Source of the DNA: an uncultured Granulosicoccaceae bacterium
Lineage (GTDB): Bacteria; Pseudomonadota; Gammaproteobacteria; Granulosicoccales; Granulosicoccaceae
NCBI GenBank assembly: GCA_964390335.1
Contig: CAYMHU010000001.1
Location: 158,225-222,224, forward strand
DNA length: 64,000 nucleotides
Reading direction: 5' to 3'
Notes under the pieces: generated by a model
What the model was told of the DNA's origin: nothing
What the model saw: the letters and a program-made list of their open reading frames with translations, nothing else
The model's database searches: none
Made by a program: the position numbers and the translations under genes
Shown here: positions 29,562-34,741 of the stretch, piece after piece
Layout: each line of letters starts with the position of its first letter
How positions within the stretch are numbered: position 1 is the first letter of the stretch

Positions 29562-30970
29562 GCGGCGAATATATTTGGGTCATAGACGACGATCAGTCCA
29601 TTCGATGGGTACTGGAAAAAGCGTTGAAACAGGCTGATATGGAAGTATCAACCTTTGAAACAGCAGACGATGCGTTGCAGATGGTGCGTGACAATGCCAT
29701 TCCTCCCAACGCGATAATCAGCGACATTCGTATGCCGGGTTCTGACGGCTTATCACTGTTAAAACAGATTAAAAGTATTCATCCCGAGTTACCCGTGCTG
29801 ATCATGACAGCATTCTCTGATTTAGACAGCACCGTGTCTGCGTTTGAAGAAGGCGCGTTTGAATACATTCCAAAACCATTCGATGTTGATCAGGTTATTG
29901 AACGCACGCAACGCGCCTGTGAAGTATTGGCGGAAAAACAGAAAACGCCACCGCGTTCGGCTAAGGCAGATACCGATGAAGAGCAACACGATGAGCTGAT
30001 TGGTGATGCGCCGGCAATGCAGGAAGTGTTCAAAGCCATTGGCAGGCTTAGTAAATCAAAAATCACCGTTATGATTAACGGGGAATCCGGCACTGGTAAA
30101 GAACTGATTGCACAAGCCCTGCACCGCCACAGTCCACGTTCAAGTAAGCCTTTTGTTGCGCTGAATATGGCAGCCATTCCGCACGATTTAATGGAATCAG
30201 AATTATTTGGTCATGAAAAAGGGGCATTTACCGGCGCGCAGTCCATGCGCGTGGGTCGTTTCGAACAATCCGATGGTGGCACGCTATTCTTAGATGAAAT
30301 TGGTGATATGCCAGCCACCTTGCAAACCCGTTTGCTGCGAGTGCTTGCTGACGGACAATTTTATCGTGTTGGCGGTCATACCCCAATTAAAGTGGATGTG
30401 CGCATTATCGCAGCCACGCACCAAAACTTAGAAACGTTAGTTGACCAAAAGCTGTTTAGAGAAGATTTATTCCATCGTTTAAACGTGATTCGCATTGAGG
30501 CGCCACCACTGCGTGAACGGCGCGAAGATATTCCCATGCTGTTAAATCACTTTCTGGAAAAAGCGGCAACAGAGCTTAACGAAACAACAAAGAAGATGAC
30601 GCCAGAGTTTAAGGCTTATGTCACAGCTTTACCGTGGCCAGGCAATGTCCGCCAGCTACAAAATACCGCTCATTGGTTAACAGTCATGGCCAGCGGCAAC
30701 GATTTAAAAGTGGAAGACCTGCCGAAACACAATCAGGAACTGCCGATCGAGGTAGATTCTGACTGGGAAGCAAGTTTCCGGCAATGGGCTAATAAACAAT
30801 TGCACGATGGCGAAACCAATTTACTGTCTAAAGCCACGCCTGCGTTTGAGCGAATATTAATTCAAGTGGCGTTAAATAAAACCCAAGACAAGCGACAAGA
30901 AGCCGCACGACTTTTGGGTTGGGGTCGGAATACGTTGACGCGTAAAATTCGTGAATTGGAATTAGATTAG
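29558..30970 (+). CDS. ntrC: Nitrogen regulation response regulator NtrC
   Basis: REC (DDD, DIRMP), [46 protein letters not shown]. Confidence 0.96.
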
Positions 30971-31058
30971 TAACAGCTGCATCCGCCAGTAAGCGCATGA
31001 TTTGGCCAGCAAACTAAACTTATGACTAGTACGCTTATTACAGCAAACAAGGATTTCA

Positions 31059-31373
31059 AATGGAAAGCTTGGAGATAAATATACCGTCGAACAGGGATAT
31101 GAGTTCGCAAAGGCTACAGGGCTAGATATTCTTGCTGTAGTAAAACTTGAGTTAGGGTCATTAGAGAAAGTCACTAGAGTGGTGAAAATACAAGGTTTTG
31201 TAAATGCCACAAGTGACTTCCAACAGCACCCCAAAGTGCTAGATGGTTGTTCTGATCTGATGGCTCAAATTTTTGAAGAAAAAGGCGTGCATGCTCGCTC
31301 AGTCTTTGGAGCAAATTCAGTCCGCGGTAATCTGCCGATCATCATCGATTCCATATTCGAGTTTTCAATCTGA
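31059..31373 (+). pseudogene. RidA/YjgF-family gene, 5'-truncated
   Basis: In-frame GKLGDKYTVEQGY..LGSLEKVTRVVKIQGFVNA..FQQHPKVLDGCSDL..HARS; in-frame TGA at 31023 and no N-terminal segment or start. Confidence 0.7.
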
Positions 31374-31455
31374 ATTGACATCAAAGCATTGTTGTGGTCA
31401 ATTGGCGTTGTTTGTGCCAAATACATTATTACCCAGGAAATATTGGATACGTGAA

Positions 31456-32409
31456 ATGAGTTTTAGCCCGTGCCCCGACCCTACATTGGGCGACCGCAAT
31501 AGCTGCGATGCCATTGACCTTGTAATCGTGCCCAGAGCCGTGGATCTCGGTGAAATGACTGTTCGCCGAGCACTGCCTTCCACACAACGACAAATGGTTG
31601 GACCGTTTATATTTTTTGATCAAATGGGGCCAGCTGAATTTCTAACCAACCAAGGGATTGATGTTCGACCACATCCTCATATCAACCTTGCCACATTAAC
31701 CTATTTATTGAAGGGTGAGATTGTTCATAAGGATAGTTTGGGTTCTGATCTACCTATTCGCCCTGGCGAGGTTAATCTAATGAGCGCTGGAAAGGGAATC
31801 GTACACTCTGAACGAACCAGCGAGCACCACAAGCAGCACGGACAAACTCTATTTGGCCTTCAAACTTGGATGGCATTGCCCATTAATCAAGAAGAAGGAT
31901 CGCCTGCATTTACGCATCTTGGGAGAGCTGAACTGCCTACTATTGACGCAGAGGGTATTCATGCAAGAGTGATCGCTGGTAGTGCACTGGGCGTTAACTC
32001 GCCTTTAATTACTGCTTCACCAACACTCTACGTCCATACAACACTGTCTCCGAGATCGCAGCTACCTGTGCCAACCGACTATATCGAGCGTGCAATCTAT
32101 CTGCTGTCGGGCGAAATATCCATTGACAATAGTCAGTTTTCCGCTGGTCAACTAGTGATACTTAAGCGCAATCAAGAAGTTGTTATAAAGGCGTCTGATC
32201 ACGCAGAATTCATGTTATTCGGTGGAGAACCTATGGATGGGCCACGCTACATCTGGTGGAACTTTGTATCCTCTCGGATCGAACGAATCGAACTCGCCAA
32301 GGAAGAATGGTCTCAAGGTGTATTTGATACCGTGCCCGGTGATGAGGACGAGTTCATACCACTGCCAGCTGACGAATATCAACCGCGACTTGCGAAAGGT
32401 TCTGATTAA
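31456..32409 (+). CDS. Pirin family protein
   Basis: VGPFIFFDQMGP, VRPHPHINLATLTYL, HKDSLG, MSAGKGIVHSER, IWWNFVSS. Confidence 0.9.
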   Translation: MSFSPCPDPTLGDRNSCDAIDLVIVPRAVDLGEMTVRRALPSTQRQMVGPFIFFDQMGPAEFLTNQGIDVRPHPHINLATLTYLLKGEIVHKDSLGSDLPIRPGEVNLMSAGKGIVHSERTSEHHKQHGQTLFGLQTWMALPINQEEGSPAFTHLGRAELPTIDAEGIHARVIAGSALGVNSPLITASPTLYVHTTLSPRSQLPVPTDYIERAIYLLSGEISIDNSQFSAGQLVILKRNQEVVIKASDHAEFMLFGGEPMDGPRYIWWNFVSSRIERIELAKEEWSQGVFDTVPGDEDEFIPLPADEYQPRLAKGSD

Positions 32410-32417
32410 CTAGGACA

Positions 32418-32520
32418 TACCCAACTAATCGCGCAAAACACCCGCACATTTAGCATGAACACTGGCCACATCCCATTGGCCTTCTCGGGTGCAGGCATTC
32501 ACATACGAGCGGTGTACGCG
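32418..32520 (-). repeat. Diverged duplicate of the last 31 codons and stop of the prepilin-like gene (matches 33891-33993)
   Basis: Encodes RVHRSYVNACTREGQWDVASVHAKCAGVLRD*; 13 differences in 96 coding nt, 10 synonymous. Confidence 0.9.
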
Positions 32521-32568
32521 ACGATGTTGGACGTACTAGTTGGATTTGCGCGAAGTAGAGAGCAAAAA

Positions 32569-32590
32569 AGGCCGATTTTGGCCAAGTGCT
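32569..32590 (+). repeat. Copy of cassette-boundary repeat next to RHH promoter
   Basis: A-GGCCGAT-TTTGGCCA-AGTGCT. Confidence 0.4.
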
Positions 32591-32594
32591 TCAA

Positions 32595-32624
32595 TTGACA
32601 CCCGGTATAACTTCGGTTATACCG
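32595..32624 (+). promoter_or_regulatory. Sigma70 promoter with inverted-repeat operator for RHH antitoxin
   Basis: TTGACA-17bp-TATACC, 6 nt to ATG; perfect IR CGGTATAAC-TTCG-GTTATACCG. Confidence 0.7.
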
Positions 32625-32629
32625 AACGC

Positions 32630-32848
32630 ATGAAAACGGCTATTTCAATACCAGACAAAATCTATGAAGCAGCGGAGAAAGCTGCGAAGCGTCTAGGTGT
32701 ATCTCGTAGCGAGTTTTACGTGAATGCTATCGAGGAATATCTTGGCAAAACGTCAGATGAAAATCTAACAGAAGAACTGAACAAGGTTCATTCCAATCCA
32801 AAGTCCCTACCCCAAAGCGAGCTTGACCGACAGGGAATCAGTGGTTAA
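32630..32848 (+). CDS. CopG/ribbon-helix-helix antitoxin (MazF partner type), C-terminus altered by deletion
   Basis: MKTAISIPDKIYEAAEKAAKRLGVSRSEFYVNAIEEYL. Confidence 0.8.
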   Translation: MKTAISIPDKIYEAAEKAAKRLGVSRSEFYVNAIEEYLGKTSDENLTEELNKVHSNPKSLPQSELDRQGISG

Positions 32849-32945
32849 TGTATCGCAGATAGTAACACTCATTAAATCTTTCCTTTCTGATAAAGCTGAA
32901 AAAATCAATCCATCGAAAATGAAAGATATTGAGGACGGACTGTGA
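32808..32945 (+). pseudogene. C-terminal remnant of PemK/MazF toxin
   Basis: Frame reads PKASLTDRESVVNVSQIVTLIKSFL..KMKDIEDGL*LPL; no N-terminal part; TGA at 32943. Confidence 0.7.
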
Positions 32946-33035
32946 CTGCCCTTGAACGAATTTATCTTTCGCTCAGTGCACACTACCACCAGTTTACGAA
33001 CCGGTCCGAAGCTCTTCTCCAGGAATTTTTAATTG

Positions 33036-33329
33036 TTATGCTGCAAAAAGTTCGATAAGAACTTCTGGCCTTTTCAAGGCGATAGTGATGAGCTTTTGTG
33101 CTGCAGCTGACGGTTTTCTTTCATTCTGTTCCCATTTTTGCAGAGTCCGCACGGAAACACCCAGTAGTGCCGAAAATTGAGCTTGTGACATATTCAAATT
33201 AACACGTGCAGCTACAATCTCAGACGTCGGCACAACATTACCACTAACACTTTTAATTTCTTTCGCTGCTGCCAATAGCTCAGCGGCCAAATCTCGATCT
33301 GCGTCTTCAATTCGGTTGTCTTTACTCAT
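33036..33329 (-). CDS. HTH (HigA/NadS-like) antitoxin
   Basis: ARVNLNMSQAQFSALLGVSVRTLQKWEQNERKPS. Confidence 0.85.
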   Translation of the reverse strand: MSKDNRIEDADRDLAAELLAAAKEIKSVSGNVVPTSEIVAARVNLNMSQAQFSALLGVSVRTLQKWEQNERKPSAAAQKLITIALKRPEVLIELFAA

Positions 33330-33634
33330 GTGACCAACACCTCTTTCAATTTCTTTAAATCACGCACTTTCATATTCTCTTTGACATTTTTCCCGTAGAT
33401 CGTCATTAAGTGCACGTAGTTTTCAATACCTGCGAAATAAATGACACGCACGCCACCACGTTTACCCCCACTTTTTGCCTGCCATCGAATTTTTCTTACG
33501 CCGCCTGAACCAGGAACAACTTCACCCGCTTTTGCATGGCAGGCAATCCAAGAAGCAAATTCTAGAAACTCTTCATCACTCCAATATCGAGATTTTTCTG
33601 CTTCAAATATGCTGGACTCGATAACGGTGTGCAT
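33326..33634 (-). CDS. RelE/HigB-2 family toxin
   Basis: GEVVPGSGGVRKIRW...GKRGGVRVIYF...IYGKNVKENM; toxin-first order. Confidence 0.85.
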   Translation of the reverse strand: MHTVIESSIFEAEKSRYWSDEEFLEFASWIACHAKAGEVVPGSGGVRKIRWQAKSGGKRGGVRVIYFAGIENYVHLMTIYGKNVKENMKVRDLKKLKEVLVT

Positions 33635-33640
33635 CAACAA

Positions 33641-33669
33641 AATATACCCCATTGGGGTACGCTGAGCAA
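33641..33669 (-). promoter_or_regulatory. Sigma70 promoter with palindromic operator for higBA-like operon
   Basis: TTGCTC-17bp-TATATT, 6 nt to ATG; IR TACCCCA-T-TGGGGTA (33645-33659). Confidence 0.65.
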
Positions 33670-33751
33670 GTCAGCTTGGCCGTTAGCGCAAACTGCAAGT
33701 ACTCTCCGTAAACACCAGTTAATATGTCATTGGCTGCGGCCAGAGGCTAAC
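33669..33751 (+). repeat. Two degenerate copies of cassette-boundary repeat
   Basis: A-GTCAGCT-TGGCCG-TTAGCGC (33669) and TTGGCTGC-GGCCAG-AGGCTAAC (33730). Confidence 0.35.
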
Positions 33752-33897
33752 TGATTAATTGATGAGAAGAGAAAAGGAACCTACCACCACGACCGCATAA
33801 GCACAGATATTGATGGCGAAAAGGTCGAACCAACCTTGGCAGACTCCGAACGTGTAGATGAGCTAACAGCTCTCGCGGTCTAACCCGCGTTACCCAA

Positions 33898-34602
33898 CTA
33901 CTCGCGCAACACACCCGCACAATTAGCATGACCACTGGCCACATCCCATTGACCTTCACGTGTACAAGCATTTACATAAGAGCGGTGCACACGGAATCGC
34001 CCACTTTCAGGTTTGCCATCATCAAGCTTCATATCAAGTTGTGACAAAATGTTTACCGGGATATGATCGCCGGTGAAAAATTCGTGGGCTAGACCTTCCA
34101 CATCAGCCGCTTGTGCGCTGTAGCTTATTTTGTAATAACCATTGAACGGATTGCGGGGACACGTTTGTGGCCCGCATTCCATATCGGACGCGGTACCGGT
34201 TGCGTTTTGCGCACCATCAAAGTTGCCGGAGATAAGCCCTGCTAACGCTAACTGTTGCCAAACTGCCGCGCGCTCCTGGCCGCCGTCTATACGTCCATTG
34301 CCGTTGCCCTGCACTGCAGCATTATCTATTTGGGTGCGGGCGGATGCGAAGTCACCAGGGATAGAGCGGTAACGTTCCTGAAACGAAAACCATGCCGCAC
34401 GAATACCGGATACATCGGCGCTTAATGAACGGACGCGAGCACTATCGATAAGCGCCTGCCCCTTGAAAACCCCGCCCATTATTAAGCCAATAATAACGAG
34501 CACAATGGCGATTTCAACGAGTGTGAAGCCCGTTTGTGGCTTGCCAATCTGAGTGTTGCCCATCTTCTTTAACCCATCTAAGCGATTAGTGTGTCGTGAC
34601 AT
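33898..34602 (-). CDS. Prepilin-type N-terminal cleavage/methylation protein (type IV pilin-like)
   Basis: G|FTLVEIAIVLVIIGLIMGGV; AAGGAG RBS before ATG 34602; C-terminal Cys pair. Confidence 0.85.
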   Translation of the reverse strand: MSRHTNRLDGLKKMGNTQIGKPQTGFTLVEIAIVLVIIGLIMGGVFKGQALIDSARVRSLSADVSGIRAAWFSFQERYRSIPGDFASARTQIDNAAVQGNGNGRIDGGQERAAVWQQLALAGLISGNFDGAQNATGTASDMECGPQTCPRNPFNGYYKISYSAQAADVEGLAHEFFTGDHIPVNILSQLDMKLDDGKPESGRFRVHRSYVNACTREGQWDVASGHANCAGVLRE

Positions 34603-34741
34603 GCTCAATCTCCTTATTGAATGTCGGTGTGCTTTGCAGCAGATAGCGGCTAGTTTCCGTGATAGACACTAATTAATCAACAGTGAAAAAGTTCAGTGAT
34701 TAGTTTTTGATCGTGAACACTGTTGCGCTAGCCGGTACCCA

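Follow-up and report, generated by a model that had tools for sequence, protein, structure and literature searches.

The locus raises the question of how an intact prepilin-like gene came to be accompanied by a second, diverged copy of its own 3' end, with toxin-antitoxin (TA) genes lying between the two. In the window, which is the whole stretch of 64 kb that was analysed, the end of the gene (copy A) is repeated as copy B over 103 nt at 87% identity and an offset of 1473 (BLAST E-value within the window 2e-32), and the pair makes up the longest repeat family there (Table 1). The repeat consists, in the frame of the prepilin-like gene on the minus strand, of 31 codons, the TAG stop and the seven post-stop bases TTGGGTA. 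Thirteen differences separate the copies, ten of them synonymous and three replacements (G>V, N>K, E>D), and 28 of the 31 residues are identical. An earlier sequence-only reading had described this duplicated prepilin 3' end, and its coordinates, offset, 31 codons plus stop and 13 differences all proved exact. The explanation found best, and judged rather likely, is that a second allele left copy B behind as a dead, orphaned piece of its 3' end, through illegitimate recombination in a fast-changing gap.

Table 1. Features of the prepilin-like locus, in order of their position in the window.
Feature	Position	Strand	Remarks
Whole variable segment	31390..33895		2506 nt; absent from close relative, which has 14 unrelated bases instead
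Pirin (bicupin) gene	31456..32409	+	Pfam Pirin and Pirin_C; convergent on copy B
Copy B	32418..32520	-	Apparently an orphaned, non-coding piece of the prepilin-like gene end, from another allele
Stretch between copy B and mazE module	32521..32592		72 nt; the 97%-identical X6 mazE copy matches only from 32593
RHH (MazE-like) antitoxin	32630..32848	+	Pfam RHH_1, 21.3 bits (cut-off 20.5)
MazF/PemK C-terminal fragment	32823..32945	+	40 aa; partial Pfam PemK_toxin match, profile positions 70-105 of 109
HigA-like HTH antitoxin	33036..33329	-	97 aa; HTH_3 (above cut-off) and MqsA_antitoxin matches; apparently intact
HigB/RelE-like toxin	33326..33652	-	PF06296, 25.7 bits against a cut-off of 27, E=1.4e-5
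fragX (stray gene fragment)	33755..33883	+	42 codons; converges on the pilin-like gene stop
Copy A	33891..33993	-	Last 31 codons, stop and 7 post-stop bases of the intact gene
Prepilin-like gene	33898..34602	-	234 aa, intact; G|FTLVE N-terminal methylation motif, four conserved cysteines

Judged from its sequence, the prepilin-like gene is unbroken and functional-looking. It is single-copy and adjoins asnS in Granulosicoccus, it has 2222 homologues with the best at 95% identity, and it is also called in L078. Matches to Pfam N_methyl (PF07963, 28.4 bits, cut-off 21.2) and NCBIfam IV_pilin_GFxxxE (TIGR02532, 21.8 bits, cut-off 16.3) were obtained, and the motif together with a hydrophobic helix places the predicted product in the type IV pilin / T2SS pseudopilin superfamily. 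Membership of the GspG or GspH subfamily was rejected, the scores being far under the cut-offs. Divergence from the close relative L088 was uniform, at 6-10% on either side of 33993, and copy A appears continuous in ancestry with the remainder of the intact gene, with no junction at that position.

Copy B, on the other side of the block, has no start codon, an in-frame stop precedes it by six codons, and it is not covered by any ORF of at least 40 aa on the minus strand. Its pilin-like homology ends exactly at 32520, and no further pilin-derived sequence was found anywhere in the window besides copies A and B. It differs by 12-13% from copy A, from the L006 orthologue, from L088 and from the X5/X6 relative alike, whereas copy A, the X5/X6 relative and L088 are only 4-7% apart from one another. 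In the family alignment columns, V and K of copy B replace a conserved G/A and a conserved N. Because it stands about 12-13% from every known allele and carries replacements at two family-conserved residues, copy B looks like a decaying orphan fragment, and the differences between the copies look like decay or an E/D polymorphism.

The proposal that both ends evolved under purifying selection in separate lineages was borne out, since dS (0.71) and dN (0.043) between the copies match the level between the intact gene and its L006 orthologue. The first 14 codons hold nine of the ten synonymous changes (Fisher p=0.0012), which the sequence-only reading had described as a cluster nearest the breakpoint. 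That description did not hold, and a mosaic or crossover reading was rejected with it: copy A against L006 and copy B against L006 give the same profile (pS ~0.8 vs ~0.1). As the clustering is also present between plain orthologues, it is a property of the gene and not the mark of a crossover or breakpoint. The last 17 codons are nearly without synonymous change among five lineages carrying different post-stop cargo; a search for an RNA element at the gene end gave no Rfam match and a folding no better than that of shuffled sequences (z = -1.3).

The ground on which copy B lies was found to be unstable. In Granulosicoccus the content of the gap that separates the pilin-like gene from the RidA-like/ntrC side changes rapidly, with cargo that differs in nearly every relative. 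Among 30 orthologous loci, the distance from the stop of the pilin-like gene to that of ntrC runs from 27 nt to >6 kb, and the post-stop sequence differs in every relative. The cargo of relatives includes genes for LysE, PEP mutase, an outer-membrane beta-barrel protein, DUF222, GCS2, an esterase, an epimerase and a solute-binding protein, as well as a PAP2-like gene, and no integrase. In these 30 loci and in L088, neither a second C-terminal copy nor pirin or TA homologues at the locus were found. A RidA-like gene is possibly among the truncated genes of the region. Only a few truly close relatives were available for comparison, and a scan of the genome collection yielded only 5 loci because it relied on exact peptide patterns. 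An empty-site relative, which the sequence-only reading had proposed to look for, was found in the X5 and X6 contigs: it has the joint 31389>33896, lacks the pirin gene too, and at 10 of the 13 diagnostic sites agrees with the copy-A type of end.

The DNA between the copies appears to be a patchwork of unrelated modules with separate histories. The sequence-only reading had listed higBA, a broken mazEF and repeat copies, with no integrase. The TA genes and the missing integrase were confirmed, but nothing within the block recurs in the window; the sole recurring piece, the fragX core at 33768-33873, recurs in other contigs of several metagenomes, ~90% identical and within a longer ORF. As an integrase remnant, fragX was rejected, its only matches being weak ones to two giant repeat proteins. 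Variants of the mazE-like gene occur in other contexts (X1, X3, X4, X6 and X8), the X6 copy being 97% identical, and the 3' end of the gene was altered by the deletion that took out most of mazF. That mazF is broken follows from an otherwise similar variant in the same metagenomes (X2 and X4 contigs, ~90-94% identical over the flanking 160-175 nt), which holds 260 nt more at 32828|32829. In the putative higBA pair the toxin gene lies upstream of the antitoxin gene with a 4-nt overlap; from its likely real start the toxin has 102 aa, looks intact and has homologues at 79-86% amino-acid identity, and the antitoxin has same-length homologues in L084 and L086. In three unrelated contexts, nucleotide homology to higBA does not extend beyond 33032-33672. 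No DNA match pointing to a plasmid or phage origin of the block was found, no recombinase is encoded in the ORFs of 32418-33993 or in the roughly 5 kb flanking each side, and predicted promoters and terminators were no more numerous than in shuffled sequence. Chromosomal type II TA modules, such as HigBA-like RelE/HTH pairs and MazEF, are cargo of variable regions. The two-gene modules here resemble other such cargo in recurring in unrelated contexts of related genomes, and with one pair seemingly intact and one decayed to an orphan antitoxin, they look in no way unusual.

Based on these findings, a mechanism is proposed in which DNA of a lineage about 12% diverged was joined through a single homologous anchor together with a non-homologous joint, the latter at 32520|32521, an event that would have trapped 103 nt of the diverged lineage's gene end. 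The recombination that left copy B was probably homology-facilitated. Homology-facilitated illegitimate recombination (HFIR), one of two routes offered by the sequence-only reading, fits the anatomy: by sequence, an intact gene is accompanied by a start-less orphan 3' end that is diverged as the allele of another lineage would be. The structure is most likely an ordinary recombination scar and not a new kind of mobile element. The minimal efficient processing segment of RecA is about 23-27 bp, and the persistence of copy B may be understood from its 19 identical bases in a row with copy A, which would be too few for efficient RecA recombination; in addition, the intact higBA pair may penalise loss. 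As to direction, the evidence leans weakly to copy A as native and copy B as the foreign piece, and the incomer could have been either copy A and the adjoining TA block or copy B and the adjoining pirin gene. Pirin-linked sequence extends to 32417, and 15 nt separate the pirin stop codon from that of copy B. Of the two parental arrangements, neither the pilin-like gene followed by pirin nor the pilin-like gene followed by fragX-higBA was present in any collection searched. No lineage was found in which pirin comes right behind the pilin-like gene, the closest pirin homologues (85%) sitting elsewhere in the genome, among ABC-transporter/racemase genes and away from any pilin-like gene; likewise for higBA, where the three homologous modules are all in unrelated contexts.

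Displaced 3' ends at T6SS and Rhs loci have been explained by HFIR (PMC5361080), and the orphan 3' fragments of Rhs, CDI and T6SS effector-immunity loci are attributed to it by Jackson et al. 2009, as cited in PMC5361080. The present locus resembles these in having an intact gene, then accessory genes, then a promoterless leftover of the 3' end of another allele, with no recombinase and with a proposed mechanism that pairs a homologous anchor with an illegitimate joint. The displaced ends of those systems code for differing toxin domains accompanied by cognate immunity genes and accumulate in arrays, whereas here a single orphan encodes nearly the same peptide, the neighbours are unrelated TA modules and pirin, and nothing has been diversified. 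C-terminal diversification in the style of polymorphic toxins was accordingly rejected, the two ends, so nearly identical in residues, not being different domains.

Among the other explanations, the one that survives best, though it is considered unlikely, is a decayed site-specific integrative element that inserted into the 3' end of the gene with a gene end of its own (copy A), displaced the native copy B and later lost its integrase. A direct precedent is the icd/icdC pair flanking prophage e14 of E. coli, where icdC is a pseudogene (Hill et al. 1989, as cited in PMC13626634). In both cases the gene keeps a working 3' end, and past the inserted DNA there is another copy of that end with some synonymous differences. 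Here a direct repeat brackets the accessory genes and contains a 19-nt identical core, and TA modules commonly survive in decayed elements. However, e14 is described in that source as a 15-kb prophage that encodes an integrase of its own and is excised upon SOS induction, whereas the insert here is 1.4 kb, and neither a recombinase nor a recognisable remnant was found, fragX, at the place where an integrase would be expected, being none. No excision or deletion joint between the copies was seen in the contigs of five runs, which can hide rare forms. The arrangement recurs at 0 of the 30 loci, and the boundaries of the empty site (31389/33896) are off the repeat ends (32520/33993). The presence of the copy-A type of end in close relatives is the reverse of what is expected if an element had carried copy A in, and the block is made of separately mobile modules. 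Site-specific integration, the other route offered by the sequence-only reading, is thereby disfavoured.

An improbable alternative, which the sequence-only reading had foreseen, is that a full second gene, an acquired or duplicated allele, once stood in tandem and later lost its 5' part by deletion or TA insertion. Copy B does stop abruptly at 32520 beside unrelated DNA, the block holds other truncated genes (mazF, fragX and possibly the RidA-like gene), and tandem arrays occur in distant homologues of other phyla (five in L038). Against this, no tandem copy exists at any of the 30 Granulosicoccus loci, the window is free of additional pilin-derived sequence, and the near-saturated synonymous divergence excludes a recent duplication within the genome.

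A further reading, to which very little probability is given, takes the last ~60 bases of the pilin-like gene as an attachment site for integrase-less cassettes moved by a recombinase encoded elsewhere. Its hints are the 17 nearly synonymous-invariant codons, the shared TTGGGTA, the 19-nt core and a break within that core in the relative L087. The same features tell to some degree against the recombination scar: the core and the TTGGGTA, which is common to copy A, copy B and the X8 relative, would also fit an att-like site; the synonymous conservation is odd across lineages with different cargo; and L087 has a different break in the same 31 codons, with few close relatives at hand. The 19-nt identical stretch, which is the longest exact match and lies mid-repeat, is also conserved among ordinary orthologues. 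The break in L087 falls 51 nt farther downstream, and no replacement end accompanies it; with no second copy in the 30 loci, the idea that other islands might break at the same codon among homologues found no counterpart.

The chance is slighter still that copy B is a silent, pilS-like cassette kept as a gene-conversion donor for the C-terminal disulfide loop. Neisseria pilE/pilS systems have many silent copies, dense amino-acid differences and frequent gene conversion. Copy B resembles pilS in being a promoterless partial pilin copy near an expressed gene, it spans both cysteines of the C-terminal loop, and two of its three replacements fall inside that loop. Unlike in Neisseria, there is one copy only, none exists in any relative, the differences are overwhelmingly synonymous, and no sign of conversion was seen. 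The variation of the disulfide region suggested by the sequence-only reading was not sustained either, as both loop replacements are confined to the dead copy B at family-conserved positions, and copy A showed no population variant at those sites across five runs and six assemblies, although rare variants may go unseen in contigs.

Finally, an assembly chimera of two co-occurring strains, which the sequence-only reading had named as a possible refutation and which a metagenomic source with related strains and variant TA copies might invite, is practically negligible, because the same structure was obtained in five sequencing runs and in independent contigs, and copies whose longest identical run is 19 bases cannot confuse the assembler. 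One 8.6-kb contig of run X7 spans the whole structure with 2 differences, overlapping contigs cover the region in runs X2 and X3, and sequencing depth is even across it. Six JGI contigs from different samples carry the gene and agree with one another; in the four of them that were read, the structure is unchanged and the 1370-nt block separating the copies shows 0-3 differences.

The finding would gain greater importance only if the gene end were a reused attachment site. As it stands it opens no new question, and its use lies in illustration and in annotation, where copy B ought to carry the label of a pseudogene fragment. In conclusion, if copy B was indeed left by illegitimate recombination, the locus would be a clean natural example of foreign DNA trapped beside a conserved gene without mobile-element machinery, and this orphan gene end from an uncultured marine genus would be its dated footprint.

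The duplicated gene end described by the sequence-only reading is real and was correctly described. Copies B and A align without gaps at 87% identity with a spacing of 1473 nt, and they form the longest repeat family in the 64-kb window (within-window BLAST E-value 2e-32). The repeat unit is in frame with the minus-strand gene 33898-34602 and consists of 31 codons, the TAG stop and the 7 bases TTGGGTA. Its 13 differences were also rightly counted as 10 synonymous changes and 3 replacements (G>V, N>K, E>D), and the longest identical run common to both copies is 19 bases. In copy B the pilin-gene homology ends abruptly at 32520, the frame is closed by a stop six codons upstream, and no minus-strand ORF covers the copy; no further pieces of the gene were found across the window beyond A and B. 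Position 32481 in the dead copy B is polymorphic (C/T) within the sampled population (sequencing run X4, contig L081), and copy A carries no variants in any assembly.

Features of the repeat pair and of the DNA between and beside the copies
Feature	Position	Strand	Description
Copy A	33891-33993	-	3' end of the intact prepilin-like gene
Copy B	32418-32520	-	orphan non-coding fragment of the same gene end
Prepilin-like gene	33898-34602	-	intact; 234-aa protein with prepilin cleavage/methylation motif
RelE/HigB-like toxin gene	between copies		overlaps HTH antitoxin gene; both normal length
RHH (MazE-like) antitoxin gene	between copies
MazF/PemK toxin piece	between copies		C-terminal, 40 aa
fragX	33755-33883	+	42-codon fragment; converges on the pilin-like gene stop
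Pirin gene			converges on copy B; 15 nt between stops

A chimeric assembly of two strains, which the same reading had raised against itself, is effectively excluded by a single 8.6-kb contig of run X7 that spans 30900-34700 with two differences, by agreeing JGI contigs, and by the copies having at most 19 identical bases in common. Overlapping contigs cover the region in runs X2 and X3; six contigs carry the gene, and the four that were read, from different JGI samples, have the same structure with 0-3 differences over the 1370-nt block between the copies.

The prepilin-like protein belongs to a large, well conserved family (2222 homologues), and the closest genomic relatives of its gene are in Granulosicoccus metagenome-assembled genomes. 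The Granulosicoccus orthologue is always single; distant homologues from other metagenomes (~30% identity; L038:5214-9113 and other loci among L037-L077) stand in tandem arrays of up to five genes. Between A and B, dS is 0.71 and dN 0.043 (Nei-Gojobori), equal to the values between A and the L006 orthologue, so the two ends grew apart while part of working genes in different lineages, which upholds the proposal that both ends evolved under selection. Nine of the 10 synonymous changes do fall within the first 14 codons, as had been counted, but their tie to the breakpoint fails. In each of the pairs A/B, A/L006 and B/L006, synonymous change approaches saturation over the first 14 codons (pS 0.72-0.83) and hardly touches the last 17 (33898-33951; 32425-32478; pS 0.09-0.18), and the clustering is therefore a property of the gene among these lineages. 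Lineages with the conserved last 17 codons (the L006, L088, X5/X6 and X8 relatives) have different DNA directly after the stop. The last 17 codons do vary in more distant relatives, and no RNA family or stable fold accounting for the conservation was found.

Differences among copy A, the empty-site relative and the near relative L088 amount to 4-7%; copy B stands 12-13% away from all three and also from L006. Since L088 differs uniformly from the window, by 6-10%, on both sides of 33993, the intact gene has no junction there. Only copy B has V and K where the family has G/A and N, which would be expected of a fragment decayed since. The evidence leans towards a native copy A and a copy B that is a trapped foreign piece, with a likelihood ratio of only about 4 (our own estimate, from counts in the empty-site comparison); alternatively, copy A may have been imported with a crossover further upstream.

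Judged by its homologies, the block between the copies is a patchwork. The higBA pair and broken mazEF reported there were both found. Homologues of higBA (78-80% nucleotide identity) occur in three unrelated contexts, with homology limited to 33032-33672, and mazE has a counterpart of 97% identity in another context, its match starting only at 32593. The nearest pirin homologues (85%) have an ABC transporter and a racemase as neighbours and no pilin-like gene close by, and pirin-linked sequence extends to 32417, exactly up to the start of copy B. No plasmid or phage match was found for the block. Because a related mazEF variant in the same seawater metagenomes has 260 nt more at 32828/32829 (~90-94% identical over the flanking 160-175 nt), the mazF of the window has suffered a deletion; that variant, whose depth is roughly one to two thirds of this genome's, has to belong to another strain or locus. 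The core of fragX (33768-33873, 106 nt) is found again, ~90% identical, in contigs from at least six runs and three or more studies, inside a longer reading frame whose flanks are alike among those contigs and unlike the window's, and it seems to come from the interior of a longer gene. The only matches of fragX are weak ones to two giant repeat proteins, and it is not a recombinase.

The DNA around the gene is a hotspot of change. At 30 orthologous loci the prepilin-like gene follows asnS and is usually convergent on ntrC, with a stop-to-stop distance of 27 nt to >6 kb and a different post-stop sequence in every relative. The cargo includes LysE, a PEP-mutase-like gene, an outer-membrane beta-barrel protein, DUF222, GCS2, an esterase, an epimerase, a solute-binding protein and a PAP2-like gene; no integrase was found among it. 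The empty-site relative that had been sought was found in algal metagenomes (X5/X6; flanking genes 6-11% diverged), with 31389 joined to 33896 via 14 unrelated bases, pirin, copy B and the TA block all being absent together and its gene end nearer to copy A. The RidA/YjgF-like frame after ntrC (31026-31373; only a 64-aa ORF is called) seems to miss ~35 N-terminal residues and may be truncated, and small joints occur in relatives just upstream (30986-31059). The X8 relative, a contig aligned on window 33890-34005, has the post-stop TTGGGTAA in common, then 552 nt unlike the window, and is a third lineage whose cargo begins at the same boundary as both copies. In L087:1790-2606, on a contig 94% identical to L006, 33%-GC DNA interrupts the gene in its 19-nt conserved core (after CAATGGGATG) with no replacement end, and the protein ends after three foreign codons, its last cysteine missing. 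This single contig could be a real insertion or a chimera. The survey for islands at the same codon gave no second example, and the L087 break lies 51 nt downstream of the window's; if genuine, that unverified contig would show that this gene end does get broken and that the codon is not fixed.

The repeat structure is best read as a recombination scar. DNA of another lineage would have been joined in the hotspot, anchored by homology at one end and joined illegitimately at the other (32520/32521), and 103 nt of its gene end would have stayed behind as copy B. An explanation on these lines has been put forward for displaced 3' ends of T6SS and Rhs loci (PMC5361080), and of the two routes first suggested the reading favors homology-facilitated illegitimate recombination. 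The site-specific route, by which the block would be a decayed integrative element, is the likeliest of three rivals and resembles e14/icd-icdC of E. coli, an arrangement that is similar but integrase-dependent (PMC13626634); three of its four defining tests failed here. Next comes a truncated tandem second gene, with copy B as the remnant of a full paralogue, which has no support among relatives: a second gene end, like pirin or these TA genes, occurs at none of the 30 loci. A pilS-like silent cassette varying the C-terminal disulfide region is the least likely, being contradicted by the pattern of differences. In conclusion, scars of this kind are ordinary, and what is unusual is how well the hotspot around this one is documented.
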